A stretch of 64,000 bases of DNA from Nitrososphaeria archaeon (GCA_029776065.1 JARVJP010000011.1:24662-88661), one strand, 5' to 3'. Shown: positions 1,895 to 17,242, numbered from the stretch's first letter. Translations and numbers: made by a program. The notes: generated by a model not told the origin, from the sequence alone.

Positions 1895-3811
1895 CTAAGG
1901 AAGCTCTATCGTCGCAACCTCATTTAAGGTGTTTATGTTGTTGACCTTGACCATTCCATGGGAGACCGTGTACAGGTATTCTTCGATGTAGAGCGCCCTC
2001 TCCACAAAGTTCTGGCTGTAGTACACTTCTTTGCTGAATTCACCTTTTATATGGGTGATCCTACCCTTTAAGACTATCCCATTTTCAGCAGTGACGTTGA
2101 ATACGTAAACTCCTTGCCACATAGGTTCACCATACGCGTTTGATGGGACTTCTCCTTGATATTGTTCCTTGTTTACCTCGGCAACTAGAATTGGTATGAC
2201 CATTAACCCTGTAGATTCGTCGAAGAGTAGTGCTTTGTGGTCGTATAGTACTGGTGAGTCTGTTCCTCTGTCACCTATCTTAAACTTCGAAGTTTCAACA
2301 GGTGCACTTACGTTTCTGACATCAAACAAGGAAATCTTGACTCCTTGGTACCACGCGAAGTCACCTTCTTCAGCAGGTACTGTTTCTTTACCTATCCCTA
2401 TTATGTAATCTCTGCCGAGTGGGTGAAGGTAATCCGAGTATCCCGGTATCTTAAGCCATCCGAGTATCTTAGGGTCTGATGGCTCATTGACATCGATTAT
2501 GAAGAACGGATCCACCTTCTTAAAAGTAACCATGTAAGCTTTTTCACCAATGAACCTAACCGAGTATATTCTTTCACCAGGTGCTATATTTTCGATCTTT
2601 CCTACGGTTTTAAGCGTTTGGTCTAAAATATATAGGTTATTCATCTGCTCAGTGCTAGCTTGCCCTCTGAAAATAGGTTGGCCGACCGTTGTCGCGACCC
2701 TAAAGTATCCTTGGTACTCGTCCATAGAAAATTGGTTTAAAACGTGGCCAGGTACCGAACCCTCTGCTTCTAGCTTTATCTCTCCATTCTGAATCTTGAC
2801 TCTATAGATCAAGGTCTCTTCTGTAGCGATAATGGCCTGCTGGTATTCTTTGACATCGTACTTTGTTAGTGTTAAGTAGATGTTATTGAGTGAAACGTAG
2901 ATGTTGCTCGCTGCACCAGTTAATAGGGTCTTGTAGACTGGTGCTTGTTGGTCCTCTCGAATGTTCAAAGATAGTATTGTTGTAAAGGAATAAGACAGAT
3001 CTGCTGCTTCTGGATAAAAAACCTCAGTCGGGTCTACCTTGTTCCCATTATTGTCGACTCTGATTTCAGGTAGTACAACCTCCTCTTTGATAAGGTATGC
3101 TGGAAACGATGCTATAACGTAAACGTAGTCGTCTATCATCCTAGAGTTCAGATAGTAACCGTCGATTGTGATGTTCCTTGCGAGTTCTGGCTGAGCTCTG
3201 TTTTGTACATCGTAAACCTCAATGCTCATCTTCGACGCGTAATAGTAGTATTCGCCTTCCTTCTCTGTTACCATATAGTTGCTCCAAGTTGACAAAAAGA
3301 CTACAAGTCTATCTCCGTTTATGAATATGGCTGTTGGAACCCTGTTCTCCTCCCAAACTATCTTTGAAAGGATCTTCGCCTCCTCAGGTGGGTAAGCCTT
3401 GAGAATTATCACCTCACCCTTTCCAGTTGAATGATCCTGTCTTAGCATATATAAATATGTACCATCACTTTTTATGATATCTGCTTCGTCAACTCCAGCT
3501 ACTTGGACATTGGTCTTTGAATAGCTACGTGAAGACTCTGCTGCTTGGGTTGAAGTCGCTACAGTGGTGAACGTCCCCCCTTTAATCCCCGGAGGGAAGA
3601 TTAAATCTACCCCAAACCATCTAGACGCAGTTTGTGTGTTCGTTTTTATGTAATTCTTAAGTTCATCATATGATGAGAAGGTTTTGAGTTCTGTTTTTAC
3701 TTCTTGCTTTGGTGGTATCAAGTAAGGTGCCATTAAGGTTGCTAATATGGTCAATAGTAAGATGGATACCGCTGCAACTGCATATAGGTGTGCATATTCT
3801 ACCTTAGACAT
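1895..3811 (-). CDS. Membrane-anchored secreted beta-propeller domain protein
   Basis: N-terminal TM helix; family motifs YSKTNVQVAGVDEADIIKSDG, LNQFSMDEY, PGERIYSVRF, KIPGYSDYLHP. Confidence 0.88.
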   Translation of the reverse strand: MSKVEYAHLYAVAAVSILLLTILATLMAPYLIPPKQEVKTELKTFSSYDELKNYIKTNTQTASRWFGVDLIFPPGIKGGTFTTVATSTQAAESSRSYSKTNVQVAGVDEADIIKSDGTYLYMLRQDHSTGKGEVIILKAYPPEEAKILSKIVWEENRVPTAIFINGDRLVVFLSTWSNYMVTEKEGEYYYYASKMSIEVYDVQNRAQPELARNITIDGYYLNSRMIDDYVYVIASFPAYLIKEEVVLPEIRVDNNGNKVDPTEVFYPEAADLSYSFTTILSLNIREDQQAPVYKTLLTGAASNIYVSLNNIYLTLTKYDVKEYQQAIIATEETLIYRVKIQNGEIKLEAEGSVPGHVLNQFSMDEYQGYFRVATTVGQPIFRGQASTEQMNNLYILDQTLKTVGKIENIAPGERIYSVRFIGEKAYMVTFKKVDPFFIIDVNEPSDPKILGWLKIPGYSDYLHPLGRDYIIGIGKETVPAEEGDFAWYQGVKISLFDVRNVSAPVETSKFKIGDRGTDSPVLYDHKALLFDESTGLMVIPILVAEVNKEQYQGEVPSNAYGEPMWQGVYVFNVTAENGIVLKGRITHIKGEFSKEVYYSQNFVERALYIEEYLYTVSHGMVKVNNINTLNEVATIELP

Positions 3812-3840
3812 TGCTCATCGCCTAATACAGTGGGGACATC

Positions 3841-3896
3841 CTTATATTATTCCATTGTATAGAACATTCAGTTTACTGTTGTTCTATTTTTTGAAC
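3841..3896 (-). promoter_or_regulatory. TATA box plus putative operator TAGAAC-N15-GTTCTA-N4-TTGAAC in a divergent promoter
   Basis: TAGAAC 3860-3865, GTTCTA 3881-3886, TTGAAC 3891-3896; minus-strand TATA (TAATATAAG) at 3849-3841, 10 nt from the first site. Same geometry at 13583-13637. Confidence 0.7.
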
Positions 3897-3944
3897 AAGT
3901 GAATTTAGAGCAAAACTCTTTTAAGAAGTATCTGGACAATCTAC

Positions 3945-4409
3945 TTGAAACTATTGTCAAAGATCATCCTTCCAGATTCTACAGTAATAGAGTCCGAGCT
4001 GGCAGGTAAGACTTTACTCGTTTACCTGTACCTGTTAAAGAGTAGAGGAGGAACTGTTGGAGTCAGAGAGGTACAGAGGAAGCTTGGTTTCTCAAGCCCG
4101 AGTGTTGCGATATATCACCTCGATAAGTTGTCTACCCTCGGCTTAGTCGAGAAGACCGATCTAGGTGAGTATTACATAAAAAGAGAGGTCAAGGTGGGTG
4201 TTCTGAAGTTTTACACAAGACTTGGAAACCTTCTGTTGCCCCGCTATCTCTTCTACACCACCCTTTTCATGGCTATGCTTACCTACTATTTGATACTGTA
4301 TCAATCTGCTTGGACTACCAACAAGGTCATCGCCGTTCTATTTGGTGCTTTAGCATCTATAATATTCTTATACGAAACTATGAAGATCTGGAAGGAGAAA
4401 CCGTTCTAG
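3945..4409 (+). CDS. Membrane-tethered winged-HTH transcription regulator (LexA-like DNA-binding domain plus 2 TM helices)
   Basis: GVREVQRKLGFSSPSVAIYHLDKL wHTH followed by two hydrophobic helices; paralog of 13679..14113. Confidence 0.82.
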   Translation: MKLLSKIILPDSTVIESELAGKTLLVYLYLLKSRGGTVGVREVQRKLGFSSPSVAIYHLDKLSTLGLVEKTDLGEYYIKREVKVGVLKFYTRLGNLLLPRYLFYTTLFMAMLTYYLILYQSAWTTNKVIAVLFGALASIIFLYETMKIWKEKPF

Positions 4410-4437
4410 GGGTGTTCTAAAGTATGGAATTAATAAG
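4403..4437 (+). promoter_or_regulatory. GTTC-N7-GTTC site followed after 10 nt by a TATA box
   Basis: GTTC 4403-4406, GTTCTA 4414-4419, AAGTATGGAA, then TTAATAAG 4430-4437, upstream of 4456..4752. Confidence 0.55.
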
Positions 4438-4455
4438 CTACCTGTTAGAAAGTAA

Positions 4456-4752
4456 GTGAGCAAGATGAATAAACTAATCCTACCAATTTTTACTGCCTTG
4501 GTTCTAGCGACGGTTCTACTGGCTGTCCCACTATATTTTCTTGAAACCCAACCTGCTAGAAGCGTTGGGGGAGAAGGTCTGCCCTCTACCATACTAGATG
4601 AATCCAAAAGCCAGTTTGGTATACAGTCAGAAAGCACGCCAACTAGTGGCATAAGTAACTACTCAAGTATATTATACATGGTTGCCTTAAGCATGCTCAT
4701 CGCCATTACAGCTACTTCCTTGATCATTAGGGTTCAACGAAGGACTTTATAG
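4456..4752 (+). CDS. Small membrane protein (2 TM with a Ser/Thr-rich loop)
   Basis: Hydrophobic N- and C-terminal helices; own TATA box. Confidence 0.6.
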   Translation: MSKMNKLILPIFTALVLATVLLAVPLYFLETQPARSVGGEGLPSTILDESKSQFGIQSESTPTSGISNYSSILYMVALSMLIAITATSLIIRVQRRTL

Positions 4753-4806
4753 TAAACAGACATCAAAAACAATATATTGTCTCTAATTTAAGTTGAGATA
4801 GGTAAC

Positions 4807-5865
4807 ATGGTTGCTCACTTTTTTAGCTTTGGTTTAAAAGCAAATGGTGTGCGTAAAGAAAAAGTAGAATTGCTAAGGTACTTCGCCCCAGTTTTAGTAG
4901 GGATATTGGTAATAGTTGTCTTCTTCACATTAGTAAACCCTTATATAGAGTCTCTTCACTCAAGCTACACCAGTACTCCAACTAAAGCAACATATACAAC
5001 GTTTACTAATACGGATAATGTAACTACAACTATTCTAGTCGACCCGATCAGATCGGAACTGGTTTCCTATGCCTTGGAGGTGATAAACCATGATCGAGAA
5101 ACATTTGGTCTCGCATCAGTTGAATTAGGGGATAATATTGCTGCCCAAAAACATTCTGAAGATTTAGTAAGGCTCAGTGTTCTGAGCCATTGGGGAGCAG
5201 ATGGCATGAAACCTTATATGAGGTATAGTGTTTACGGGGGGAAGAACTATGTTCAAGAAAACGTTGGAGTTATGTTTCTAGTTGGAAAGGCTTCGCCACC
5301 ATCTGTTGAGGAAATGAAATCATACATTAGGGAACTGGAGCATGAGATGATCTACAACGATTCTGCTGCAAATTGGGGGCATAGAGATAACATTCTCGAC
5401 CCTGCTCATACGCATGTTAACATAGGAATTGATTATACTAATAACATGTTTGTTATGGTTCAAGACTTTGAAAACGTCTACATAAATTGGAATGTGTTCG
5501 AAGTAAACGATACACAAGTAACATTAGATGGAAGTCTCTTAAAAGATTTGGAAGCATATTTGTTTGTCGTGTTCTACGATCCGCTACCAGAACCTTTAAC
5601 GAGAGAGCAATTATTAGGTCCACCTTATAACAACGGATACTTCTTTGGTGAGAAGATAGGGGCTGTCTTAAATAAAGGGTATGAAGTAGATATTCCATAC
5701 GTTTACGCTACTAAATGGTATCAAAGTGGACTTGACTTTAGCATAGAATTTGATCTCTCACCTTTTGTTCAAAAGGATGGAGTTTACACGATCCTATTCG
5801 AAGTTATAGATGAAAAAGGTCAGATATACTATGCTACAGCATACTCAATATTCATCAAAAAATGA
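4807..5865 (+). CDS. CAP/SCP domain surface protein
   Basis: TM anchor and Thr-rich linker, then INHDR, AAQKHSEDL, SHWG, QENVG, GHRDNILDP and VQDF CAP motifs. Confidence 0.85.
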   Translation: MVAHFFSFGLKANGVRKEKVELLRYFAPVLVGILVIVVFFTLVNPYIESLHSSYTSTPTKATYTTFTNTDNVTTTILVDPIRSELVSYALEVINHDRETFGLASVELGDNIAAQKHSEDLVRLSVLSHWGADGMKPYMRYSVYGGKNYVQENVGVMFLVGKASPPSVEEMKSYIRELEHEMIYNDSAANWGHRDNILDPAHTHVNIGIDYTNNMFVMVQDFENVYINWNVFEVNDTQVTLDGSLLKDLEAYLFVVFYDPLPEPLTREQLLGPPYNNGYFFGEKIGAVLNKGYEVDIPYVYATKWYQSGLDFSIEFDLSPFVQKDGVYTILFEVIDEKGQIYYATAYSIFIKK

Positions 5866-5924
5866 CTAAAAGCTTTCCCAACCTCATATATATTAGCCGT
5901 ACATGAAGTTCTAAGTTAGATATA

Positions 5925-6695
5925 TTAAATATGATATATTATAAGCACTAGGAAACCAAGAAACCAGCAATAAAACGAAAACTTGTAGAAATCCCCTTTT
6001 AAAACTAACTTAGAGACCTTCCTTATTGAAGCATAACCTACTAAAGCAGATACAAGGAAACCTATTAAAACCATCTCAAAGGAGATTTCAGTAAGGTCTA
6101 ATTCTGAGACTTCTAGTACAGAGGCTCCAAGTATAGCAACAATTGAAAGCAGGAAGGAGAACCTGTAAGCCTGTTGTCTGTCCACACCTCTTAAAATAGC
6201 AGTAGATATTGTAGAACCACTTCTAGATACCCCGGGGAAGACTGATAGCACTTGTGCCACTCCTATGGTCAACGTGTTAGATAAACTAAGATTTCCTTTT
6301 GTAGTAGAATATTTTGTTAAGAAGAGTATGAAACCATTAACTAACAAGGCGATCGCTACCGCTATAGCATCAGAAAAAGCTCTTTCAATAAGGTCTTTAA
6401 ATGTTAGACCAACGGCTACGATTGGGAGGCTTCCAACTACAACGTAGACCGATAATCTTCTTTCTTCTATGCTATTAAATCCAAGTAAAGATTTGATCAT
6501 TAAAATAATGTCCCTCCGCATGAATAAGCCCACAGATAACAATGTTCCTATGTGTAGGACGACGTCAAAAGCAACTGGTACCTTTATCCCTAATCCTTCT
6601 TGTACAAGTACTAGATGCCCAGAGCTTGAAATTGGGAACCACTCTGTTAGACCTTGTACTATCGCTAAGAACACTATTTCAATAAGTTCTACCAT
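5925..6695 (-). CDS. uppP: Undecaprenyl-diphosphate phosphatase (BacA family)
   Basis: VQGLTEWFPISSSGH and PGVSRSGSTI signature motifs; multi-TM. Confidence 0.93.
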   Translation of the reverse strand: MVELIEIVFLAIVQGLTEWFPISSSGHLVLVQEGLGIKVPVAFDVVLHIGTLLSVGLFMRRDIILMIKSLLGFNSIEERRLSVYVVVGSLPIVAVGLTFKDLIERAFSDAIAVAIALLVNGFILFLTKYSTTKGNLSLSNTLTIGVAQVLSVFPGVSRSGSTISTAILRGVDRQQAYRFSFLLSIVAILGASVLEVSELDLTEISFEMVLIGFLVSALVGYASIRKVSKLVLKGDFYKFSFYCWFLGFLVLIIYHI

Positions 6696-6769
6696 TAATT
6701 AGATATAAACTCTCCATATTTATAAATCAGATATGAATTTGGTGTCGATCTTTGCTTTGGCCCTCTCCA

Positions 6770-7480
6770 CTAGAAGATTTCTAGGAGTTCATCAAGTTCC
6801 TTAATCTCGAAATCGGGTACTTCAAAATCGTTCATAGGATACATATGTAACATGATTCCTCTTCTGATCAACACTGTCCTCATACCCAGAGACTTAGCAG
6901 GTCCAATATCTGCGTCTATCCTATCGCCGACCATAGCTGCCTCTTGGGGCACACAGTTAGCTTGGTTCAATGCATACTGGTAGACCTTGATATCTGGTTT
7001 CTTAAGGCTTACTTCCTCTGAGAGGACTATGAGTTTGAAGAACTTCGTTAAACCTAGAGACTCGAGTTTCTGTCTTGTATCTTTTGGTTGGTTGGCTAAA
7101 ACTCCTAGGCTATATTTTTCTTTAAGCTTGTTTAAAACCCTGATCGCTTCAGGTACAGGCTCCATCATTTCTACATATTTACGTGCGTTCTCTTGATAGT
7201 AGTCTATGTTCCTTTGCAAGAGGATTGGGTCGTTCGAAAAACTTTTTACAAGCTCACTTACTATACCAGTATAACCGTATCCTGTAAACCGCCTGTTTGA
7301 AATGATCTCCTTCAACGCGGCATTAAACCTATCCCAGGTTATTCCTAGCCCGGCTTCCTCTATAGACTTAAATATGTGAGTGAAGAGATATTTGTTAAAG
7401 GAGCATTCATCACATAATGTTGAACCGATATCGAGAAATATCCACTTTAGCATCTGTACCCAAGGGTATAGTTTATGCAT
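6770..7480 (-). CDS. HAD-superfamily hydrolase
   Basis: FLDIGSTL, KKPD and MVGDRIDADI motifs. Confidence 0.88.
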   Translation of the reverse strand: MHKLYPWVQMLKWIFLDIGSTLCDECSFNKYLFTHIFKSIEEAGLGITWDRFNAALKEIISNRRFTGYGYTGIVSELVKSFSNDPILLQRNIDYYQENARKYVEMMEPVPEAIRVLNKLKEKYSLGVLANQPKDTRQKLESLGLTKFFKLIVLSEEVSLKKPDIKVYQYALNQANCVPQEAAMVGDRIDADIGPAKSLGMRTVLIRRGIMLHMYPMNDFEVPDFEIKELDELLEIF

Positions 7481-7703
7481 AATTTAACGATTAAGTTGCA
7501 ACGATTTTCAAAAAGTTTGCCTTAGAGTTCTAATAAGAGGGTCACCTTTAGGAAATCTCTTATAAATATGGTTCCTGTTTGAATGTTTTAAACGTGTGTA
7601 AATTTCGCACTTATCTAACTCTGAAAGGTATGGTTCGATAGATTAACCACCTAATATGCATCTGTTCTTAATTGTTAAATACGGTTTAAACAAACTAAAG
7701 CCT

Positions 7704-7943
7704 ATGAAGATCGGGGTCTGTGGAGTGGCTTGTGAGAAATGCCCTAGGATGGTGCGAGGGACATGCCCCAATGGTGAAATAGGTTGTACACCGAAGGAGA
7801 ACAAGTTCTGCAAGGTTTCAACTTGTGCTTTCCGTAAGGGTGTTGCGCTTTGCTTTGAATGCAACGACTTTCCATGCGAAATAACGAAGAGCGGGCCATT
7901 AGACTATGGCTACTGCACCTACATATCAGGGAAGAGTATCTAA
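7704..7943 (+). CDS. Small Cys-rich metal-binding protein (DUF3795-like)
   Basis: Probable start ATG 7704 (MKIGVCGVACEKC); CFECNDFPC motif. Confidence 0.72.
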   Translation: MKIGVCGVACEKCPRMVRGTCPNGEIGCTPKENKFCKVSTCAFRKGVALCFECNDFPCEITKSGPLDYGYCTYISGKSI

Positions 7944-7980
7944 GCCTAATGTGAATGAAAAGAGCTTCTCTAGAGTTAGG

Positions 7981-9120
7981 TCATCCACTCTGTTCTATTA
8001 CCTTCTTTATAAGATGTATTACCTTCTCAACATCCTCTTTGTTGTTGTAAATGTGGGGTGAGAAACGTAGAGCGCCAAACCTTTTTGAGATGATTATCTT
8101 CTCCTCTTTTAGTTCATTAAGCAAAGTGTCAGCGTCCAAGTTGTCGAATTTTGCGGTGACTATTCCTGCTCTTTGGTGGCGGTTAAAGGGGGTGAACAGA
8201 TTAGCTCCTAAGTTTTTTAACCCCTCCATCAACTCTTGGGTAATGCCTATGACATGGTTATTGATGTTATCCACTTCAAGATCTGAAATATACTTTAGTG
8301 ATCGCGTGAAGCCGTAGATGGCTGAATAGGGCATACCTCCATATTCAAATTTTCTGGCGGTTTTTTTAAAAGAAAGTTTCAAAGGCTCAAAGACCTCGTG
8401 ATCTTCCTTGCTTCTCCACCCAGCAAAGATCGGTTCAACGTCATGGTAGACTTCGTCCTTCATGTATAGGAACCCTGCTCCAAAAGGTCCGAGGAGCCAT
8501 TTATAAGCAGCTGTGACTAGAACATCGACATCCTCCACCTTCGCATCAAATGGAATCACACCTAAGGACTGTATGGCGTCAACGACTAAAAGTGCTCCAT
8601 GCTTATGCGCTAACTCAGCAACCTCTCTTAAATTGAATCTGAACCCACTACTGTATTCCACATGGCTTAATGTGATCACTTTAGTCTTATCGTCAACCAA
8701 CCTTTCCAAGTCCTCAATTGTAACGATGCCGTTTTTGTGCCGCGCAAACCTTACCTCCAACCTTTTCTCCTCGGCGACCTTTAACCAAGGGTATGTAACT
8801 GTTGGGAACTCTAGGTCGGTGGTGACAATATTACTCCCAGGAGTCATCTTTACTGCATGCGCAGTGAAGTTCAAACCCTCACTTGTGTTTGTTACAATAG
8901 CTATGTCATCGGATTTGCAGTTTATTAGATTAGAAACTTCATCTCTTGCTTCTTCCAAAACTTGATCTTCGAAGTTATCATTAATCGTCCCAGATATTTC
9001 ATAAGTTTCCTCGAAGCTTGAGATCGCCTTAATGACTTGAATAGGTTTAAGGGAGATCGCTGCTGTATTCATGTAAACGTATACCTTTGAAGGAGGGAAG
9101 TCCTCTTTTACTGGACGCAT
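7981..9120 (-). CDS. Class V PLP-dependent aminotransferase (cysteine desulfurase-like)
   Basis: NTSEG, VDAIQSLG, YKWLLGPFGAG and RFSPHIYN motifs. Confidence 0.9.
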   Translation of the reverse strand: MRPVKEDFPPSKVYVYMNTAAISLKPIQVIKAISSFEETYEISGTINDNFEDQVLEEARDEVSNLINCKSDDIAIVTNTSEGLNFTAHAVKMTPGSNIVTTDLEFPTVTYPWLKVAEEKRLEVRFARHKNGIVTIEDLERLVDDKTKVITLSHVEYSSGFRFNLREVAELAHKHGALLVVDAIQSLGVIPFDAKVEDVDVLVTAAYKWLLGPFGAGFLYMKDEVYHDVEPIFAGWRSKEDHEVFEPLKLSFKKTARKFEYGGMPYSAIYGFTRSLKYISDLEVDNINNHVIGITQELMEGLKNLGANLFTPFNRHQRAGIVTAKFDNLDADTLLNELKEEKIIISKRFGALRFSPHIYNNKEDVEKVIHLIKKVIEQSG

Positions 9121-9399
9121 GTCTGATTGTGGATGTGAGGTACTAAAAAAGCTTATATTGAATAGACCTATTCTAAGGCAATAAGAATCTATGTGCTATA
9201 TATTGGTTTGATTCTTAAATCTTTTAGTCGGCTTAACATCATTTAAATGGTGTTTGTCAAGTTTCTTTGGTGGCGGTTCCCCTTCCAATTGGTAACTATG
9301 ATGTAATATAAAGCGATTGGTATCGCTCTCTTAAAACATATTAATTTTCGATGGCAAAAGCAGTAAGCTTAAATTAATCTAAGGAAAAATTGGCAACGG

Positions 9400-9918
9400 A
9401 TGCGTCCTGCTAAGAATCAGTTACTTATGGTAGTGGTTATAGCGTTTATGATTGTTGTAGCATACGAGTTGGCCAACTCGACCTTGGCAGTTAGAATTGA
9501 ACCAACAACTTCGACGAAGACTTCGTTGATCGAATACTCGACCCCTCCTAAAATAATTGTAACCTATCAAAATAGGAGCTATTACGGTGCGCAACATACT
9601 TACATGTGGAAGATGAGGTGTGAAGACTATGGTCCAATCTTCGGGAGGCCGGATCTAGAGTATTTAACTACAATAAGGATTGTAAATTGCTCTGAACTTA
9701 CGATTGGAATAAAAGGGTTTCGTGAACCTGAAAAATATCACTTGGTGTTTTATAGTACTGACAAAAGCGAGTACATCTTTAAAGAGGGGGTTCAACAGAA
9801 TGTAAGGATACAACTTAATCAAAAATCTTACTATCTTGTAATAATAGCTGATTGGTGGCCTCCTAACGATCCAGGAGAAACGTCGAACATCTTCAAGATT
9901 GAGTTAATTACATCTTGA
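9400..9918 (+). CDS. Hypothetical secreted or membrane-anchored protein
   Basis: 172-aa ORF with an N-terminal hydrophobic segment and an upstream TATA-like box. Confidence 0.6.
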   Translation: MRPAKNQLLMVVVIAFMIVVAYELANSTLAVRIEPTTSTKTSLIEYSTPPKIIVTYQNRSYYGAQHTYMWKMRCEDYGPIFGRPDLEYLTTIRIVNCSELTIGIKGFREPEKYHLVFYSTDKSEYIFKEGVQQNVRIQLNQKSYYLVIIADWWPPNDPGETSNIFKIELITS

Positions 9919-10017
9919 TGTGTGCGTTAATGGGATGTTCAAATAATTCATGTGTTTAATGCCATGTTCATATAAGATTGACTACGCACACCTCTTTTCC
10001 AAAATAGTTGATCCGAG

Positions 10018-10704
10018 CTAGTATTTTGTCATCATTCTCATATATCTAAGATTTTGGGCGCTTTGAATATAGGTCTCTGGATCTATCTCTTCTGCTGAGA
10101 CGTTGTCTACATCTATTATAAATACAGAGTGTAACCTCGCGTATTTGATGTCTTCTAGCCTAATAGGTGGGTTTTGGTAGTAGATATCGCAGAGCTTTTT
10201 TACCTTCCACGCTTCTTCATCACTTCTATAACGTGGTGGCTTTACAAAGTATGATGGTAAAGGGAGAATGTGGTTGGGTGGTGTGCCTAAGGCGAACTTG
10301 TTTGAGTAAGCGCTATATCGCGAAATTTTACTCGACAATCTAGCATAGTAATAGGTAAGTGGTTGTAGGGCATGTTCCGGTGACACGAAGCCAGTCTCGA
10401 CTTCAACGATCATTGTACCCTCTCCCTTGATGCAGTAGAGATCACAGACAAGGTTTTCTGATAATTTATATTCAACCTTCACATCATACCCTAGCTTAAT
10501 CAATGCCTTTGCACATACTAACTCCATTGCGGAGTGATTTATTTTAACAAGGTTCTTTTTGTATAGTGAAACTAGTTCCTGTTTCACTACTAATAACTTT
10601 TTGCATGAGCTATAATCCTCCCCATTACAAGCTTTATTCGTTAAAGTGTCCAGATCTTCTTCAAACTTGCTGGAAACCAAAGCCTTCGCTATCCTTAGGG
10701 CCAT
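10018..10704 (-). CDS. Archaeal hypothetical protein with a PD-(D/E)xK-like nuclease motif
   Basis: VKVEY...CDLY...IVEVETG pattern. Confidence 0.6.
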   Translation of the reverse strand: MALRIAKALVSSKFEEDLDTLTNKACNGEDYSSCKKLLVVKQELVSLYKKNLVKINHSAMELVCAKALIKLGYDVKVEYKLSENLVCDLYCIKGEGTMIVEVETGFVSPEHALQPLTYYYARLSSKISRYSAYSNKFALGTPPNHILPLPSYFVKPPRYRSDEEAWKVKKLCDIYYQNPPIRLEDIKYARLHSVFIIDVDNVSAEEIDPETYIQSAQNLRYMRMMTKY

Positions 10705-10767
10705 CCTCTATATAAGAGGTACCACTTCTGCAGACTATATTGGATGTGTAAACTTATTAGTTGAAGC

Positions 10768-11289
10768 GTGAGTTACACCTTTGTGGGCGGCTCAAAAAGG
10801 CGTATGATATGTGTCATGACAAGAAATAATATTAAGCCGGGTGACATAGGGTACATCATATACTTACATGGTCTTCTATATTCAGAAGAATTTGGGTTTG
10901 ACGTAACATTCGAACCTTATGTTGCAGTTCCTTTAAGCGAATTTGTTTTGTCACAAGATAAAGATAGGCAACGCATCTGGATTTTAGAGGCTGAAGGCAA
11001 GATAATTGGTTCTGTTGCTGTGGTAAAGAGGACGGAAATTCAGGCTCAACTTAGGTGGCTGATCGTGCATCCAAGGTTTAGAGGGAAAGGATTAGGAAGG
11101 AAACTTGTCAACGAAGCTATATCATTTAGTAGAAAAGCTGGTTACAAATCGATATGTCTTTGGACCGTTAGTGTTTTAGAGCATGCAGCCAACCTCTACA
11201 AGTCGCTTGGTTTTGTCAAAAAGGAAGAAAAGAAGCATATGATCTGGGGTAGAATGCTTACAGAGGAAATGTATGAACTCGAACTATAA
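10768..11289 (+). CDS. GNAT acetyltransferase
   Basis: [19 protein letters not shown] and [10 protein letters not shown] motifs; the true start may be slightly downstream. Confidence 0.9.
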
Positions 11290-11349
11290 TAAAAGCTCCA
11301 ACTTTCGCATATATACCATTTATTAATGACAACTTAGTTCATTTAACAC

Positions 11350-11904
11350 ATGATAAAGTTGAAAGTTTTAGGAATAATTGGGGCAACTTTGCCATACTTG
11401 TTCATCGTAGCTTCCATTGCTCTCTCACCATGGTTTGACTTCTACGATAACGCTTTAAGCGATCTAGGGAACATCGCGCGTAATGGGTATACCGCTTACC
11501 TCTTCAATCTGGGTCTGATGATTACTGGCGTGATTGTAGCTTTTTTTGCAATACTTTTATCTGTACAGAAACACTCTTGGAAATTCCTCACATGGACCCC
11601 CTTGCTAATGATATCGGCGTTCGATCTATTCTTGATCGGTGTCTTCAGTGAAGACGCGGGGAAAATTCATTGGATTGTATCAGTAATATTTTTTGTCACT
11701 ATTACGGTTTTGATGTTCATATACAGCTATATCTCTTGGCCACTGGGGTCTCCTGAAGTAGGTGCAATATCTCTTATCTTTGGGCTTACTTCCGCGTTTA
11801 TCTGGTTTATAGAATGGCCTTGGGCTAATGTTGCAATACAAGAATCTGTTACTGGACTGACTTCGTCTATCTGGTTGATCCTTGTTTCCTACAGGAACGT
11901 GTAG
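11350..11904 (+). CDS. DUF998-like membrane protein
   Basis: PWF..NALSDLG, LIGVFSED and H motifs; multi-TM. Confidence 0.8.
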   Translation: MIKLKVLGIIGATLPYLFIVASIALSPWFDFYDNALSDLGNIARNGYTAYLFNLGLMITGVIVAFFAILLSVQKHSWKFLTWTPLLMISAFDLFLIGVFSEDAGKIHWIVSVIFFVTITVLMFIYSYISWPLGSPEVGAISLIFGLTSAFIWFIEWPWANVAIQESVTGLTSSIWLILVSYRNV

Positions 11905-11970
11905 GTTTAAGCTTCATAAACAACGTTATTTAAAATAATCTTCACGTAGAATAAAGCATGCTTGTAATTT

Positions 11971-12900
11971 TCATTCCTCTGAAGGGTTATACTTCTTAAA
12001 CCATTTGAAACCAGCTTTTTCCATCAAGTCTAAATATGTATCATTTCCCTCAGGCATAAGGTCTGCTCTGTAATGTAGAGCAAAGTAGTATTGTGCAGGG
12101 TTTATGTAGCCTTTCCTCTTAATCAGCTCCAAGCACCTTGATGCGAAAGCTTTCCCTTGAACTTTATTACAAACTTCCTCTACTACCTTTAATCGCTCTT
12201 CATCAATCTTAACTTTGATGCGTTCATACTTCTTATTGAATGCTTTTAGAAGCTCACTGTCATCTTGTTCCTTGTATTTCTCATTATGAACGATCATTCT
12301 TAGACCTAGTTTTTGTTGTGGTAATGGTCTCGTTTTAGGGTACCCTATGCAGAGTAAGACCACAGGAAAGACCTTATCAGGTAGTTTGAGTAGTTCCCGG
12401 ATCTCGGAAAAAGCTTCAAGCACGGAGCCAATATACACCGAACCAAGACCAACGGATTCTGCTGCCGTGCATATGCTCTGCGCGCAGATGATAACGTCTT
12501 GAAACGAGACCCAAAAGTGTCGGAATGAGTTGTTGGCGGTGAAGGGTGCACATTCTAAGTTTGCCCAACGTTCTAGGCGGTGCATATCGATGGTAAACAT
12601 TAACAAGATAGGTGCTTTGCTGATAAATGCTTGTTGGCATAATTTAGCGAGCTTCTCTTTTTTCGACTTGCTTTTAATCACGATAATCGAATATGGTTGG
12701 AGGTTGCCTGCTGACGCGGAGTGAAGTCCTGCCTCAAGAATGAGGTTAAGTAGGGTTTGAGGGACCTTTTCGTCTTGAAAACTTCGTACGCTTACTCGTT
12801 CATATAGAAGCTTAATGGTTCCGTTTGGATAATTTTCCTTTCCCCCTTTTTTGTTTTGAATAAGCTTGCCATCATAGGTTAGAATTGGATTTTCTACCAT
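11971..12900 (-). CDS. Nitroreductase family protein
   Basis: RVSVRSF, SAGNLQPY, AESVGLGSVYIG and LCIGYP motifs. Confidence 0.9.
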   Translation of the reverse strand: MVENPILTYDGKLIQNKKGGKENYPNGTIKLLYERVSVRSFQDEKVPQTLLNLILEAGLHSASAGNLQPYSIIVIKSKSKKEKLAKLCQQAFISKAPILLMFTIDMHRLERWANLECAPFTANNSFRHFWVSFQDVIICAQSICTAAESVGLGSVYIGSVLEAFSEIRELLKLPDKVFPVVLLCIGYPKTRPLPQQKLGLRMIVHNEKYKEQDDSELLKAFNKKYERIKVKIDEERLKVVEEVCNKVQGKAFASRCLELIKRKGYINPAQYYFALHYRADLMPEGNDTYLDLMEKAGFKWFKKYNPSEE

Positions 12901-12997
12901 TTACCCATATGAGATAATATACTACGTATTTAAGCCTTGGTGTGTAAAGACGATCAGTTCGAGATCATGTGTCGAGACTCTGATTTGACTTCTTTTC

Positions 12998-13552
12998 TTA
13001 AGGGATTACAACTGTAGTATAGTAGTCAGAGCTCGTCTTGATCAGCACATTGTAAGTTGTATTAGATGGCAGTGGTGTGCTAAATTTCAACTTAATTGTC
13101 TGAGGTGACCGTGGTGTAACCTTAATAGGTAGATTAATGTCAAAGACTTCTCCCTTTAAGCTCGTTAAAGTGTTCCCATTAAGGAGTATGTCTGTTATAG
13201 TTATATCCCTACTGCTTCTTATGTTGACTACTATATCGGTCTGATTAAGAGCGTATACAGCCACCTCTAAACCCTCTCTTTCTGTCAAAACCTCGGTCAC
13301 AGTTGTGGTTAAGTCAGTTCTAGAAGTTGTCCCCGTTTTTGTTTCACTTGAAGGCGCCTCAGTTGGCACAGTCGTGGTGATCACATTCGTGTAGGTTGAA
13401 GGTGTTGCCGATGTTTTCCAATTAGTTGTAGAAGGGTATGCTGTGTGTATCTGCTCGGATGGGAAGTAAATACTGGCTCCATATGCGAGTGAGACCGCTA
13501 TTAAAACCCCTACTAATGCTCCTCCAGTAATCTGTTTTTTATACTCTGACAA
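12998..13552 (-). CDS. Membrane-anchored surface protein (TM, Thr-rich linker, C-terminal Ig/pilin-like beta domain)
   Basis: N-terminal TM, Thr/Ser-rich stalk, beta-rich C-terminus. Confidence 0.7.
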   Translation of the reverse strand: MSEYKKQITGGALVGVLIAVSLAYGASIYFPSEQIHTAYPSTTNWKTSATPSTYTNVITTTVPTEAPSSETKTGTTSRTDLTTTVTEVLTEREGLEVAVYALNQTDIVVNIRSSRDITITDILLNGNTLTSLKGEVFDINLPIKVTPRSPQTIKLKFSTPLPSNTTYNVLIKTSSDYYTTVVIP

Positions 13553-13582
13553 CTGTTCTCCCTTACTAGTATTCTTAGGTTC

Positions 13583-13637
13583 AAATATAATACTAAAGTT
13601 TAGAACGACTAATCAATTTATATTCTAAGATTTGAAC
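13583..13637 (-). promoter_or_regulatory. TATA box plus putative operator TAGAAC-N15-ATTCTA-N4-TTGAAC
   Basis: TAGAAC 13601-13606, ATTCTA 13622-13627, TTGAAC 13632-13637; minus-strand TTATATTT at 13590-13583. Spacing identical to 3841-3896. Confidence 0.7.
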
Positions 13638-13678
13638 TAGGAAAAAAAGCTTAAGTCATATAAATAATCGATATATTA

Positions 13679-14113
13679 GTGAAGGAGGCTATTATATTGG
13701 CGGATAAAAAAGGTTCAGATGTGTTAAAAGGAACAACTCTTAAGGTTTATCATTACATATTCAAGCAAGGTAAGCCGGTAGGTGTTCATGAAGTACAAAG
13801 AGGGCTTACATTAAGTTCTCCTTCTTTAGCTTTGTATCATATAAGCAAGCTTTTAGAAGCGGGTCTTGTCAGAGAAGAAGGTAAAGGCTACATCGTTGAC
13901 AGAGTTGTATTTGAAAACATGATAAGAGTTAGGAGAACTCTCATACCTTTCCATACCACTTATGCGATTTTCTTTATAACAACATTACTAATTCTCTTAA
14001 CCTATCTTAGACCCTCTGCGATAACCTCTACCTACGTATTTTCCCTAATTGTTAATATCGCAGCCATCTTAGTCTCAATATATGAAGCTATTAAAGCTTT
14101 GAAAAAGATTTGA
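13679..14113 (+). CDS. Membrane-tethered winged-HTH transcription regulator (paralog of 3945..4409)
   Basis: GVHEVQRGLTLSSPSLALYHISKL wHTH plus two C-terminal TM helices. Confidence 0.82.
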   Translation: MKEAIILADKKGSDVLKGTTLKVYHYIFKQGKPVGVHEVQRGLTLSSPSLALYHISKLLEAGLVREEGKGYIVDRVVFENMIRVRRTLIPFHTTYAIFFITTLLILLTYLRPSAITSTYVFSLIVNIAAILVSIYEAIKALKKI

Positions 14114-14213
14114 AATAGTAGGCCTACATTTTAAAGCTGATTTAGAATAGCCTCCTTATTTTTATCGAGGAAAATAAATAAAAGCTAGGCTAATAAAAAA
14201 TTAGTTGACCTAA

Positions 14214-14768
14214 ATGATTACATATAATGTCGGTAAAGCAAAGTTGCAAATAGTAAGAGGTGATATAACCGATCAAGAAACCGATGCGATAGTAAACGCG
14301 GCGAACTCGACCTTGATGGGTGGAGGAGGGGTGGATGGTGCGATTCACCGAAAAGGTGGCCCTAAGATACTCGAAGAATGTAAAAAGATAAGACTTACTC
14401 TATACCCAGAAGGCCTTCCAACAGGTAAAGCCGTAATAACATCAGGCGGGAATATGAAAACAAAATATGTAATACATACCGTTGGACCAATATGGAGAGG
14501 TGGTAATAGCGGGGAAGCAGAGTTGCTTTCAGAAGCTTACAAGAACAGCCTTAAACTAGCTGTATCTCGACGTCTAAAGACAATTTCTTTTCCATCAATA
14601 AGTACCGGTGCCTACGGGTTTCCTATTGAAAAAGCAAGCAAGATCGCCTTAGAATCAATTAAGAACTTCCTAGAATCTGAAGACGGTCTTGAACTGATAG
14701 TTTGCGTATTATTTAGTCAAAGCGACTTAGAAACATATGTCAAGGTTGCCAAAGAAATCTTCAGCTGA
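14214..14768 (+). CDS. Macro-domain O-acetyl-ADP-ribose deacetylase (YmdB-like)
   Basis: GDIT, AIVNAAN, GGGGVDGAIH, HTVGP and FPSISTGAYGFP motifs. Confidence 0.93.
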   Translation: MITYNVGKAKLQIVRGDITDQETDAIVNAANSTLMGGGGVDGAIHRKGGPKILEECKKIRLTLYPEGLPTGKAVITSGGNMKTKYVIHTVGPIWRGGNSGEAELLSEAYKNSLKLAVSRRLKTISFPSISTGAYGFPIEKASKIALESIKNFLESEDGLELIVCVLFSQSDLETYVKVAKEIFS

Positions 14769-14884
14769 TTTAGTAACCTTAGATCATCCCTCCTCTTAAT
14801 TAAGCTGTTTTCTTAATGTCATTAGCTTAAAAGCTTGATGTTAGAAGGTTAATATAATAGGTTGTTCATAGAAATAAGATAGTT

Positions 14885-17242
14885 TTGCATAGTGATACAA
14901 GTCTTATTGAAGGATTTGGCGTTGTAGAGTCAGGAGTTAATATTGCAACCGCTACTATACAAGACGCGGGGGTTTATGACATAATATTGGAAGTAGGTGA
15001 AATTATAGGTGCCTATCCTAGAATAGAGGTCAAATCACCTAATGGTTGGTTGCAGTTAAAGAAAAACGCTGATCTGTTCAAACTCAGTGACGAACTCCGT
15101 GTAATCTTTTGTGATAATACAGGTAGCAACCTAGTAAACGATAAACCCTATTTCTACAATTCATACGTAGGTTCACCTGATATGATGGGTGTAGGTGTGT
15201 TCTCAATTCCCTTACGCCTCCATATTAAGCGGTTTCTCGAAGGGCAGCTATCTCCTTTAAACAAAGGCGGAAATCTTAGAATTGAAGTTGAGCTCTTAGA
15301 CCCTGATGAAGATATAAATTCAATCGACGGCGTTAGGCAAAGATCTGGTAAGGAGTTTGTGGAACTCTTCCATAACGAGATTTTAAATAAATTCCAAAGT
15401 TTCGACAACTGTCCAGAAGAGTTAGCCCCATCAATATACGCTTTAAGGTCAGGGGATGTTGGTGGAATAAAGTCTGACAAGATGCGTTTTATATTCTTCG
15501 TTCTAAACCCCACTCTTAGTCCAAGCTACTCGTATAAGGTCAACTACGCTGACAATAAAGTGATAGTAAGTTACGAATTCAATGCGGACGACGTTACTGG
15601 AGTAGAAGATCTCGTTTTTGAAGTGCTCTTTAATCCTCCAGGCGTTCTTGGCAATAACTATAAGGTTAGAGTGAACCTAGTGAGACCTGATACAGGAGAA
15701 CCATGTAGCACTAAGGTAACAGGTTACGAAACCCCTAAGATAACCGTGTGGCGGGAGACTACGTTAGAGCTTTTTCTCCAAGGTGAAGACTTGAACGACA
15801 AATCACTCTATGACGATATCGAATGGGATGAGGTTCAAAGAGCGTTTGAAGACGCTTACATAATAGTAAACTACCCTAAAAAACCTTCAACAAAGACCCA
15901 TGTGACAGGAAAAAATGATTGGATCATGTTCTTGGAAAATTTTGTGTACAACAATTGGAGGACAGCTGCTTGGAACCTTATTAAGAACAAGTATCCACAA
16001 CAACTATCACAAGATCTGCGACAATACTCCTTTCCTCAGAGAGTCCTAGTTAATGATATTAAGTTCGATGGTTCCATGCAATACGAACTGAGTAATGATG
16101 TTAACGGAATCGCCACATCAGACATCGTTGTCGAAGGGGTGAATCAAGGATGGTCAACCACATTCTTGCAGGGGACTGACTATATAATTAACGGTACTAA
16201 GATCGAATGGCAAGTTGGGAACATAGTGCCAGACAATAATACAAACTTCAAAGTTTATGCTGAGCTCGCTCCTACTACAAACTCCTCTTGGGAAACCTCC
16301 TCCTACGCACAGATAGAGAAGATGGCATATCAGATCGTAAGTTCAATAATAGGCGTCAACCCAAAGGACAGTCTCCCAGCAAAGAGACCATTTTATGTTT
16401 TAGTCTGTAAACCTCCAACAGCTGGGCAGACTGGTATGGGTTGTTTCCTAGGAGGAAAGTTGTTTTATATAGTCACTGGTGCTGACAGTGCTCAAACCTT
16501 CACACATGAAATGGGTCACGCTCTTTTCCTTAACCACGGCTCAACATCTTTTATACAAAGTCCATCACTGAATATTGTTGTACAATTTAATGGTGGCGGC
16601 TCAAGTGGGCCATTTTGGCACGATCACGACTCAGAAGACATGATCTCCTGCGTCATGTCATATTGCGTTGCTCATAAACTTCAAGTTCATCCTTGTGATT
16701 GGCATTTCTGCGGTGTGTGCTTACTACTATTGAAGTTCTATGACGGTTTCAAGCTTCAGGGAAGTGATGTTATGAAGAAACTACAGTATTCTTTAAGGAA
16801 AGGTAATGGCCCTATAAGAATTATTAGTGCAGACTACCAAATTGTAAATGTCGGAGCCTCACAAGAGCTTCAAATAGGGAACTTTAACTTCACAGGGCAG
16901 TGTAGCATAAATAGCGAATCATTTAAGCAAGGTGCGGCTGTTTCTAAAATTCTTTTCGTCGCTTATCCTAAAGAAGGTGTAATTAACAACACGGGAGTTG
17001 ACTACTTCAAAGATATTTCTAGCTTTCCTTGGCACCTTTGGAAGGTTTACGATGACACGACAGGGCAGGAGATAAGTCCATCAAATTCCATCTTTAGCTT
17101 TTCTTACTTTTCACCTGACGCAAGGTTATTCACTATGATAACCTTAAAGGGTATAAAGGGAAGAAACAGGATAGTGTTTGAGGTAAATTATAATAGCAAT
17201 AACCCAATTCAAAGTGAGCCCTTTATTGTAGAGGTTGTTTAA
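14885..17242 (+). CDS. Large hypothetical protein with a metzincin-like Zn-metallopeptidase domain
   Basis: THEMGHALFLNH (HExxHxxxxxH), Met-turn CVMSY and FCGVC cluster; no signal peptide seen. Confidence 0.7.
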   Translation: MHSDTSLIEGFGVVESGVNIATATIQDAGVYDIILEVGEIIGAYPRIEVKSPNGWLQLKKNADLFKLSDELRVIFCDNTGSNLVNDKPYFYNSYVGSPDMMGVGVFSIPLRLHIKRFLEGQLSPLNKGGNLRIEVELLDPDEDINSIDGVRQRSGKEFVELFHNEILNKFQSFDNCPEELAPSIYALRSGDVGGIKSDKMRFIFFVLNPTLSPSYSYKVNYADNKVIVSYEFNADDVTGVEDLVFEVLFNPPGVLGNNYKVRVNLVRPDTGEPCSTKVTGYETPKITVWRETTLELFLQGEDLNDKSLYDDIEWDEVQRAFEDAYIIVNYPKKPSTKTHVTGKNDWIMFLENFVYNNWRTAAWNLIKNKYPQQLSQDLRQYSFPQRVLVNDIKFDGSMQYELSNDVNGIATSDIVVEGVNQGWSTTFLQGTDYIINGTKIEWQVGNIVPDNNTNFKVYAELAPTTNSSWETSSYAQIEKMAYQIVSSIIGVNPKDSLPAKRPFYVLVCKPPTAGQTGMGCFLGGKLFYIVTGADSAQTFTHEMGHALFLNHGSTSFIQSPSLNIVVQFNGGGSSGPFWHDHDSEDMISCVMSYCVAHKLQVHPCDWHFCGVCLLLLKFYDGFKLQGSDVMKKLQYSLRKGNGPIRIISADYQIVNVGASQELQIGNFNFTGQCSINSESFKQGAAVSKILFVAYPKEGVINNTGVDYFKDISSFPWHLWKVYDDTTGQEISPSNSIFSFSYFSPDARLFTMITLKGIKGRNRIVFEVNYNSNNPIQSEPFIVEVV

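Follow-up and report, generated by a model that had tools for sequence, protein, structure and literature searches.

Transmembrane transcription regulators (TTRs) are defined as proteins that combine a predicted DNA-binding domain with one or more predicted membrane helices, and 1,384 archaeal TTRs have been counted, approximately 4 per archaeal genome, with an enrichment in Thermoproteota (Demey et al. 2023, PMC10269533). In Sulfolobus acidocaldarius, ArnR and ArnR1 are described as membrane-bound one-component activators of the archaellum, and ArnR needs two boxes per promoter, which are inverted repeats in front of genes for a cell-surface structure (PMC6396743). ArnR is also described as responding to the membrane lipid state, with a C-terminal cleavage that depends on lipid cyclisation (PMC12107092). 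Here we report a family of small archaeal TTRs together with an inverted repeat, or dyad, of the form GTTCTA-N4- or N5-TAGAAC (N, any nucleotide), both found in 64,000 nucleotides of a Nitrososphaeria archaeon (GCA_029776065.1, JARVJP010000011.1:24662-88661; hereafter the window). The best overall explanation of our data, and a probable one, is that the small transmembrane regulators bind dyads that control genes for membrane-anchored proteins.

A first-pass annotation of the window, made from the sequence by a model, had known of no description of such a regulator and operator. The class is already described, both as TTRs and in the form of ArnR (PMC10269533, PMC6396743), and we found no literature description of the small hairpin-anchored family, its operator or its partner gene. 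The terms LexA, ArsR, Bathyarchaeota and Crenarchaeota occur 0 times each in the main text of PMC10269533, the supplementary lists of which may include family members.

Dyads at regulator genes and predicted target promoters

Two genes of the window and a third paralogue on another contig (C3:715661-716077) are predicted to encode small transmembrane transcription regulators. Regulators 1 and 2 (Table 1) are 38% identical over 134 residues (E 6e-17) and have SSPS(V/L)A(I/L)YH in common, which forms the third helix of the winged helix in an AlphaFold model. The model of regulator 1, built on a 42-sequence alignment (predicted local distance difference test score, pLDDT, 84; predicted template-modelling score, pTM, 0.57), has a winged helix of three helices and a two-strand wing at residues 22-78, followed by long hydrophobic helices at 85-118 and 125-151 that form a hairpin. 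The protein would thus consist of a cytoplasmic winged helix-turn-helix, a short linker and a two-helix membrane hairpin, with essentially no outside domain. Regulator 1 is divergent from target gene 1 and regulator 2 from target gene 3, and both target products begin with a membrane helix; the third paralogue is divergent from the gene for another membrane-anchored protein (426 aa, Thr-rich, DUF4382). The first-pass annotation had proposed the two paralogues, their shared recognition helix and their divergence from surface-protein genes, and all three proposals hold.

It had also described a tripartite site, TAGAAC-N15-RTTCTA-N4-TTGAAC, in both divergent intergenic regions. The sequence, the coordinates and the spacing of this site stand. 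The elements lie at 3860-3865 (TAGAAC), 3881-3886 (GTTCTA) and 3891-3896 (TTGAAC) in the first region and at 13601-13606 (TAGAAC), 13622-13627 (ATTCTA) and 13632-13637 (TTGAAC) in the second, with identical spacing of N15 and then N4. The pattern has exactly 2 matches in the 64 kb (3860-3896 and 13601-13637), compared to a mean of 0.00 and no match in any of 100 dinucleotide-preserving shuffles of the window. The unit itself has to be redrawn: judged by sequence, each region parses better as two dyads, and we take the dyad as the unit because related loci show it. The proximal dyad, GTTCTA-N5-T(A/G)G(A/T)AT, abuts the TATA box, and the distal dyad has the form GTTCTA-N4-T(A/T)GAAC. On the strand of the surface gene, 3865-3842 reads GTTCTA-TACAA-TGGAAT-AATATAA and 13606-13583 reads GTTCTA-AACTT-TAGTAT-TATATTT. 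The 10 nt that had been placed between the tripartite site and the TATA box (3850-3859 and 13591-13600) were correctly counted, but they are the loop and second half of the N5 dyad rather than a spacer.

The distal dyads also face the promoters of the regulators. The dyad at 3881-3896 ends 21 nt before the TATA box of regulator 1, and that at 13622-13637 ends 11 nt before the TATA-like GCTTAAGT (13649-13656) of regulator 2. Approximately 20 nt separate the AAACTCTTTTAAGAA block from the TTG start of regulator 1, which implies a leaderless mRNA, and this block is identical or nearly identical in loci L001-L005.

A third promoter, between the stop codon of regulator 1 and the gene for a small membrane protein (target gene 2), had been read as a GTTC-N7-GTTC direct repeat in front of a TATA box. 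Its parts are present (GTTC 4403-4406, GTTCTA 4414-4419, TTAATAAG 4430-4437), but a direct repeat it is not, because the first GTTC belongs to the Pro-Phe-stop codons of regulator 1. Instead, 4414-4437 reads GTTCTA-AAGTA-TGGAAT-TAATAAG, in a layout that matches 3842-3865 and 13582-13606, and this N5 dyad is the most conserved site of the family. Overall, target promoters carry one dyad directly against the TATA box, with the proximal half-site filling the 6 bp directly upstream of it. A second dyad is often found, either 4-15 bp upstream of the first or beside the promoter of the regulator. The TA-rich boxes beside the dyads would be the promoters. The predicted targets are genes next to the regulator whose products have an N-terminal membrane helix, the most consistent of them being the gene for the small two-pass protein behind the regulator.

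We compared these sites to two sets of related loci: a close-relative set of 56 loci from 31 related genomes, and a phylum set with one locus per genus (56 fetched, 55 usable; L116 lacked a start codon). The intergenic rate of the window genome gives an expectation of approximately 3 dyad-positive loci per set. At least one dyad (N4 or N5, at most 2 mismatches) flanks the regulator in 34 of the 56 close relatives and 27 of the 55 phylum loci, while the coding controls contain a dyad in 0/56 and 0/55 loci. Of the loci fetched after the model had been fixed, 10/10 had a dyad at this threshold, upstream of all four fused forms (described below) and downstream of all six split forms.

An unbiased search of 3,328 dyads (256 4-mer words, gaps 0-12) in 56 upstream regions and 60 shuffled sets recovered the same palindrome. 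GTTC-N8-GAAC was found in 8 loci from 3 protein clusters; among the shuffled sets it was found once in 3 and never in 57. Among all dyads, the highest frequencies were those of TCTA-N4-TAGA and TTCT-N6-AGAA, both of which belong to this palindrome. Furthermore, TTAGAA, GTTCAA, TGAACA and GTTCTA were the most enriched non-homopolymer 6-mers upstream, against a background of mostly coding DNA. In the four closest orthologous loci (L002-L005; 69-77% protein identity), the GAAC/GTTC/GAAC elements and both core promoters are kept while the spacers have diverged; the kept sequence includes the block TATATTATTCCAT, of which the TATA box of target gene 1 is part, and three of the four loci have an extra GAAC. 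Orthologues of regulator 2 have 1-4 copies of (G)TTCTAATTTTAGAA(C) upstream.

Across the phylum, the dyad is found upstream of the regulator in 6/55 loci and just after its stop codon in 25/55, and dyad-positive loci belong to 11 of 27 GTDB families. When both sets are taken together, an N5 dyad with at most 3 mismatches lies between -12 and +120 of the stop codon in 55/111 loci, with the column consensus GTTCTAA-aat-n-TAGAAT followed by TA-rich sequence. At 16 of these 55 stop-codon sites the left half-site is formed by the last codons of the regulator, CCG TTC TAA/TAG (Pro-Phe-stop), so that the conserved C-terminal P-F and the DNA site may constrain each other. Such half-sites were seen at 4401-4409 of the window and in L007, L010, L079, L082, L084, L087, L090, L102 and others.

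Of the 37 loci in which the stop-codon N5 dyad has no more than 2 mismatches, 35 have an open reading frame (ORF) that begins 8-90 nt beyond the dyad (median 30, quartiles 25-39) and whose product has an N-terminal membrane helix. Given the usual distance from TATA box to start in archaeal promoters, this spacing is compatible with a TATA box immediately behind the dyad and with mRNAs that have a short leader or none. Clades with an S-N-P-S recognition helix have mostly GTTCAA half-sites and S-S-P-S clades mostly GTTCTA; this apparent tracking of helix by half-site, seen in one clade, is only suggestive. Genomes rich in paralogues carry an array of sites at each of them. G004 and G006, two genomes of one genus (L049-L055), have 5-6 regulator-2-type paralogues, every one behind 2-4 tandem dyad copies with a period of approximately 22 bp, and each paralogue is followed after 4 nt by the gene for a Thr-rich protein with an N-terminal membrane helix. 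The dyad accompanies the regulator family in three gene arrangements: divergent, tandem and fused.

Dyads with at most 2 mismatches are present in all three paralogue regions of the source genome, a 1.74-Mb archaeal assembly in 16 contigs with approximately 40% G+C. The intergenic region of the third paralogue is packed with TTGAAC, GTTCTA and GTTCAA and includes the perfect palindrome GTTCAACATGTTGAAC. We scanned the genome using crude ORF calls (1,761 ORFs, 192 kb intergenic) and found two perfect intergenic N4 palindromes, compared to approximately 0.02 estimated from base composition. They lie upstream of the genes for a SIMPL/DUF541 protein (C3:404456-405229) and a 285-aa protein (C10:410603-411460), and each of these promoters has a second dyad that abuts a TA-rich box. 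At C3:638885-638930, two N5 dyads precede the gene for a 169-aa protein, the proximal one against TAAATATT. All three products start with a membrane helix, as do 381 of the 1,761 ORFs in the genome background. Since counts of dyads with 2-3 mismatches are at background level, isolated weak sites are uninformative, and only sites with at most 1 mismatch and clustered layouts are informative. By sequence, the genome has at least six or seven such dyad promoters. The proposed tie between regulator, operator and genes for membrane-anchored, extracytoplasmic proteins thus has strong comparative evidence, and the other promoters in the genome are alike.

The regulator family and described regulators

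Family members are proteins of 135-160 aa with a linker of approximately 15 residues and a loop of approximately 6-9 residues between the hairpin helices. In the alignment, the recognition helix S-S-P-S-x-A-x-(Y/H)-H is conserved, as are P99, Y104, E144 and a C-terminal W-(R/K)-x-x-P-F in or around the hairpin. Because hairpin positions are conserved, the membrane part is probably more than an anchor. Grouped at 50% identity, the matches of a family profile form 1,061 clusters at E ≤ 0.001 and 688 at E ≤ 1e-10, almost all of 130-160 aa, and the family is present in 181 of 301 sampled Thermoproteota genomes. Databases label the relatives 'ArsR family', and those of Sulfolobaceae 'ArsR family' or winged helix. 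The closest relatives of the window proteins are labelled 'Nitrososphaeria archaeon' and more distant ones Bathyarchaeota.

Regulator 1 comes under the TTR definition through its winged helix and its two predicted membrane helices, and its matches to winged-helix families are weak. No curated family in Pfam or NCBIfam is matched above its cut-off by regulator 1, regulator 2 or the third paralogue. The best Pfam match of regulator 1 is PF01726 (LexA_DNA_bind; E 8e-5, 22.8 bits against a cut-off of 23.7), for which regulator 2 scores 12.5 and the third paralogue 15.8. Regulator 2 is nearest to HTH_20 (23.9 bits, cut-off 27), and the third paralogue to HTH_5, TrmB and SdpR. Matches at E ≤ 0.001 among 42 family members were to HTH_20 (13), LexA_DNA_bind (10), TrmB (9) and HTH_5 (4). 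NCBIfam gave sub-threshold matches only (lexA, ArsR, SdpR), including TIGR00498 (lexA) at 17.5 against a cut-off of 110.95 and NF033788 (ArsR/SmtB) at 14-19 bits against 55. A sequence search of the PDB returned nothing below E 0.05 and a fold search nothing below E 1e-3, with MarR, ArsR, IclR and LexA matches that were equally weak and indicate a generic winged helix.

The regulators resemble LexA in the PF01726 match and in the GTTC/GAAC of the half-sites. LexA boxes are GAAC-N4-GTTC in Gram-positive bacteria and GTTC-N7-GTTC in alphaproteobacteria, whereas the sites here, GTTC-N8/9-GAAC, are the inverse of the Gram-positive box and differ in spacing too. The dyads precede genes for membrane-anchored proteins rather than for DNA repair. 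Furthermore, the regulators lack the S24 peptidase domain (no Peptidase_S24 match at E ≤ 1), and their C-terminal half is two hydrophobic helices in the model. Assignment to ArsR/SmtB fares no better, as the cut-offs of HTH_5, HTH_20 and NF033788 are not reached. ToxR, CadC and TcpP combine an OmpR-type domain with one membrane helix and a periplasmic sensor domain, whereas the regulators here have a generic ArsR/LexA/TrmB-like winged helix and a two-helix hairpin with its short outside loop; there was no Trans_reg_C and no HAMP match in the window regulators or the 42 family members. Of the labels that the first-pass annotation had given, 'LexA-like' is therefore apt for a generic winged helix but not for LexA itself (a sub-threshold match, 10/42 members, inverse box), and 'ToxR-like' is apt in the broad sense of a TTR but not for an OmpR-type or an outside domain.

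Alignment and model place in our regulators one of the architectural features that PMC6396743 gives for the ArnR family. ArnR has a HAMP-like and a sensor domain between its DNA-binding domain and membrane helices, whereas the regulators here have no room for either. The ArnR boxes, TCGAC-N5-GTCGA, lie at -43 to -84, whereas the dyads described here lie against the TATA box. By description, the family is also set apart from ArnR in its targets, which for ArnR are type IV pilus genes (PMC6396743).

The family extends to Sulfolobaceae. In five Sulfolobaceae-type genomes, strong profile matches (E 2e-22 to 6e-32) were only to frames of 125-144 aa, and weaker matches were mostly to short frames, with one (E 9.9e-4) in a 392-aa frame. 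The Sulfolobaceae homologues have the same architecture, and in 2 of the 5 examined the neighbouring divergent gene encodes a membrane-anchored protein. These two (L063, L064) are 135-141 aa long, and their intergenic DNA is without GTTC/GAAC words.

The small membrane protein, fused forms and neighbouring genes

The product of target gene 2 consists of two membrane helices, separated by approximately 45 residues rich in Ser, Thr and Pro, and a basic tail after the second helix. Nine related loci keep this design, although the sequences are only 15-34% identical to the window protein. A word-based search for relatives found only the protein itself, because the protein evolves too fast for such a search. 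We regard the small two-pass protein as a candidate partner of the regulator, a pairing that parallels TcpP, which is controlled by its small single-pass membrane partner TcpH (PMC11323476). For hairpin residues 80-154 with the small protein, a complex prediction without controls gave no answer for or against the pairing (score 0.01, mark 0.32).

Among the 150 best family clusters, nine are longer (253-314 aa). Their hairpin is followed by a short linker and a third helix, and then by 60-90 residues of low complexity that lead to a fourth helix with a basic tail behind it; the named members come from Nitrososphaera and Nitrosomirales assemblies. Four fused genes are uninterrupted ORFs in the fetched genomes, and at each of these loci a dyad lies 17-30 nt upstream of a TATA-like CCTTAAAT box, one dyad being the perfect palindrome GTTCTAGTGCTAGAAC. 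These four-helix forms (L129-L132, in the Nitrososphaera-type genomes G430, G440, G456 and G378) are 276-369 aa long, and the genes downstream of them also begin with signal- or anchor-like sequences. The architecture of the extension is like that of the small protein, which suggests a gene fusion of two partners. An hmmsearch with the fused-form profile did not match the separate downstream ORFs, and in 115 genomes from a single family of the same class the fused-form profile A3 had no match at E ≤ 1e-20. We rejected read-through matches (e.g., positions 4-266 across one TAG) as homology, since profile comparisons showed no similarity.

Table 1. Coordinates of regulator genes, target genes and promoter elements in the window.
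Feature	Position	Strand	Remarks
Regulator 1	3945..4409	+	154 aa, TTG start; winged helix-turn-helix, then two-helix membrane hairpin
Regulator 2	13679..14113	+	144 aa, GTG start; paralogue of regulator 1, same architecture
Target gene 1	1895..3811	-	638 aa; N-terminal membrane helix and Beta_propel (PF09826), E 2e-156
Target gene 2	4456..4752	+	small two-pass membrane protein, 98 aa (GTG 4456) or 95 aa (ATG 4465)
Target gene 3	12998..13552	-	184 aa, Thr-rich; N-terminal membrane helix, no family match
Putative TATA box of target gene 1, TAATATAA	3842..3849	-	from sequence and distance to ATG
Proximal N5 dyad GTTCTA-TACAA-TGGAAT	3849..3865	-	abuts TATA box of target gene 1; C10:28508-28526
Distal N4 dyad GTTCTATTTTTTGAAC	3881..3896	.	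1 mismatch to GTTCTA-N4-TAGAAC
Putative core promoter of regulator 1, AAACTCTTTTAAGAA	3913..3927	+	approximately 20 nt before TTG start
Extra GTTCTA half-site	4403..4408	+	last codons of regulator 1, CCG TTC TAG (Pro-Phe-stop)
N5 dyad GTTCTA-AAGTA-TGGAAT	4414..4430	+	abuts TATA box TTAATAAG (4430-4437) of small membrane protein gene
TATA box (13582-13589) and proximal N5 dyad GTTCTA-AACTT-TAGTAT (13590-13606) of target gene 3	13582..13606	-	C10:38247-38267
Distal N4 dyad ATTCTAAGATTTGAAC	13622..13637	.	2 mismatches

The gene at 4807-5865 lies 55 nt behind the small membrane protein gene and could be co-transcribed with it; its 352-aa product has a membrane helix at the N terminus and matches a CAP domain weakly (E 0.0042, below cut-off). 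Translations read by eye point to the C-terminal part of a histidine kinase at 2-853, followed by a receiver-only response regulator at 858-1337. Downstream of regulator 2 they point to a macro-domain-like protein directly behind it (14214-14768) and a 785-aa protein with a HEMGH zinc-protease-like motif (14885-17242). Two runs labelled metatranscriptomic, which are flagged as probably DNA, held 7% of the words, with contigs 90-99% alike on 3300-3757 and 4419-4725; such contigs are blind to starts, strand and level.

Sign of regulation and alternative explanations

We propose that a dimeric regulator, inserted in the membrane with its DNA-binding domain inside the cell, would bind GTTCTA-N4/5-TAGAAC. 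Since one dyad lies directly against the TATA box, the proximal half-site takes the place of the B recognition element (BRE). Transcription factor B (TFB) reads the BRE directly upstream of the TATA box, and archaeal factors bound at this position usually exclude TFB and the TATA-binding protein (TBP). The bound regulator would block TFB/TBP and repress the target genes, a sign that we favour because of the BRE position of the proximal half-site and consider somewhat better than an even prospect. Activation, or action either way according to site position, is the less probable sign and a serious possibility, since the distal dyads and those at the regulators' own promoters sit at upstream-activating positions. 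A membrane or envelope change would relieve or alter binding, and the conserved hairpin, perhaps partnered by the small protein, may carry the signal; alternatively, the regulator may be cleaved as ArnR is. Because the outside loop is so short, the input is likely one of three: the lipids or proteins around the hairpin, the small partner, or proteolysis.

The alternative that survives best has the same regulators and sites, and differs from the repressor reading only in sign: the regulators would be activators that recruit TBP/TFB to surface-protein promoters, like Ptr2 or ArnR. We consider it rather unlikely as a whole. The proximal half-site abuts the TATA box in the TFB contact zone, where bound archaeal factors are usually repressors; it is on this ground that the activator proposed in the first-pass annotation is not supported. 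The dyads of fused forms and of the regulators' own promoters lie 11-30 nt upstream of the TATA box, a typical upstream-activating position, and the target promoters have no obvious separate BRE, for which a bound factor could stand in. The known integral-membrane regulators ArnR, ToxR, CadC and TcpP are also mostly activators (PMC6396743).

It is improbable that some other factor, either a soluble regulator or an envelope-specific alternative TFB/TBP, binds the dyad and that the tethered protein is a mere member of its regulon. Such a factor would account for a phylum-wide dyad that is mostly downstream, before the next gene (25/55), and seldom at the promoter of the regulator (6/55). However, the dyad follows the gene family through all three arrangements and into 11 of the 27 phylum families, its half-site variants appear to track recognition-helix variants, and each paralogue of a paralogue-rich genome has its own array. 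That the inverted repeats are RNA hairpins, which might for instance terminate the regulator mRNA or stabilise its 3' end, is very improbable: many sites do follow a stop codon directly and the right-half variants TGGAAT and TAGAAT would still pair through G-U wobble, but the divergent sites (3849-3896, 13590-13637) lie upstream of both putative core promoters and should not be transcribed, the predicted folds are weak for a hot-spring organism (0, -2.4, -4.3 and -5.4 kcal/mol at 37 C), there is no Rfam match in 3000-15000, and the sequence itself is conserved, rather than just its pairing, in a fixed register to the TATA box.

Several points weigh against binding of the dyad by the tethered regulators as we propose it. 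Binding is deduced from the adjacency of gene and site, and the sign from promoter geometry and general knowledge of archaeal factors. No dyad with at most 2 mismatches was found in 50 of the 111 loci, and 16 of the 27 phylum families have none. None of the five Sulfolobaceae homologues has a GTTC/GAAC dyad upstream; the GTTC/GAAC operator is therefore not simply transferable, and any operator of these homologues must be a different one. Intergenic sites with at most 1 mismatch occupy six places in the source genome, four beside genes whose products have an N-terminal membrane helix and two beside genes whose products lack one. Intergenic dyads with 2 mismatches number 14 genome-wide compared to approximately 13 expected by a rough calculation, and the layout patterns of the genome scan (P1, P2) were written after the window sites had been seen, which makes their counts partly circular. 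Finally, the small protein and the C-terminal part of the fused form have no detectable sequence similarity (hhalign probability 0.9%).

Beyond regulators that bind dyads in front of genes for membrane-anchored proteins, we tentatively offer a more specific and speculative idea, which is unlikely to be right in full. The regulator and the small protein may be two halves of a split sensor, which Nitrososphaera-type ammonia oxidisers would have as one four-helix protein. The two would act as a minimal switch for the state of the envelope, widespread in Thermoproteota, that holds surface-gene promoters at the membrane and shuts them through the BRE position, with the exposed Ser/Thr/Pro-rich loop or the lipid-embedded hairpin as input.

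Almost nothing is known about the control of envelope genes in uncultured Thermoproteota (Bathyarchaeia and hot-spring Nitrososphaeria) and in ammonia-oxidising archaea. For a widespread regulator family, our data define an operator and a promoter layout and predict a small number of targets. Two features are unusual for archaeal promoters: the operator occupies the BRE position, and the Pro-Phe-stop codons of the regulator often serve as the left half of the operator. Since perfect palindromes precede the fused gene in Nitrososphaera-type genomes, cultured organisms may allow the prediction to be tested. The family and its dyad are thus a candidate for a circuit from membrane to gene control in heat-loving and ammonia-oxidising archaea.

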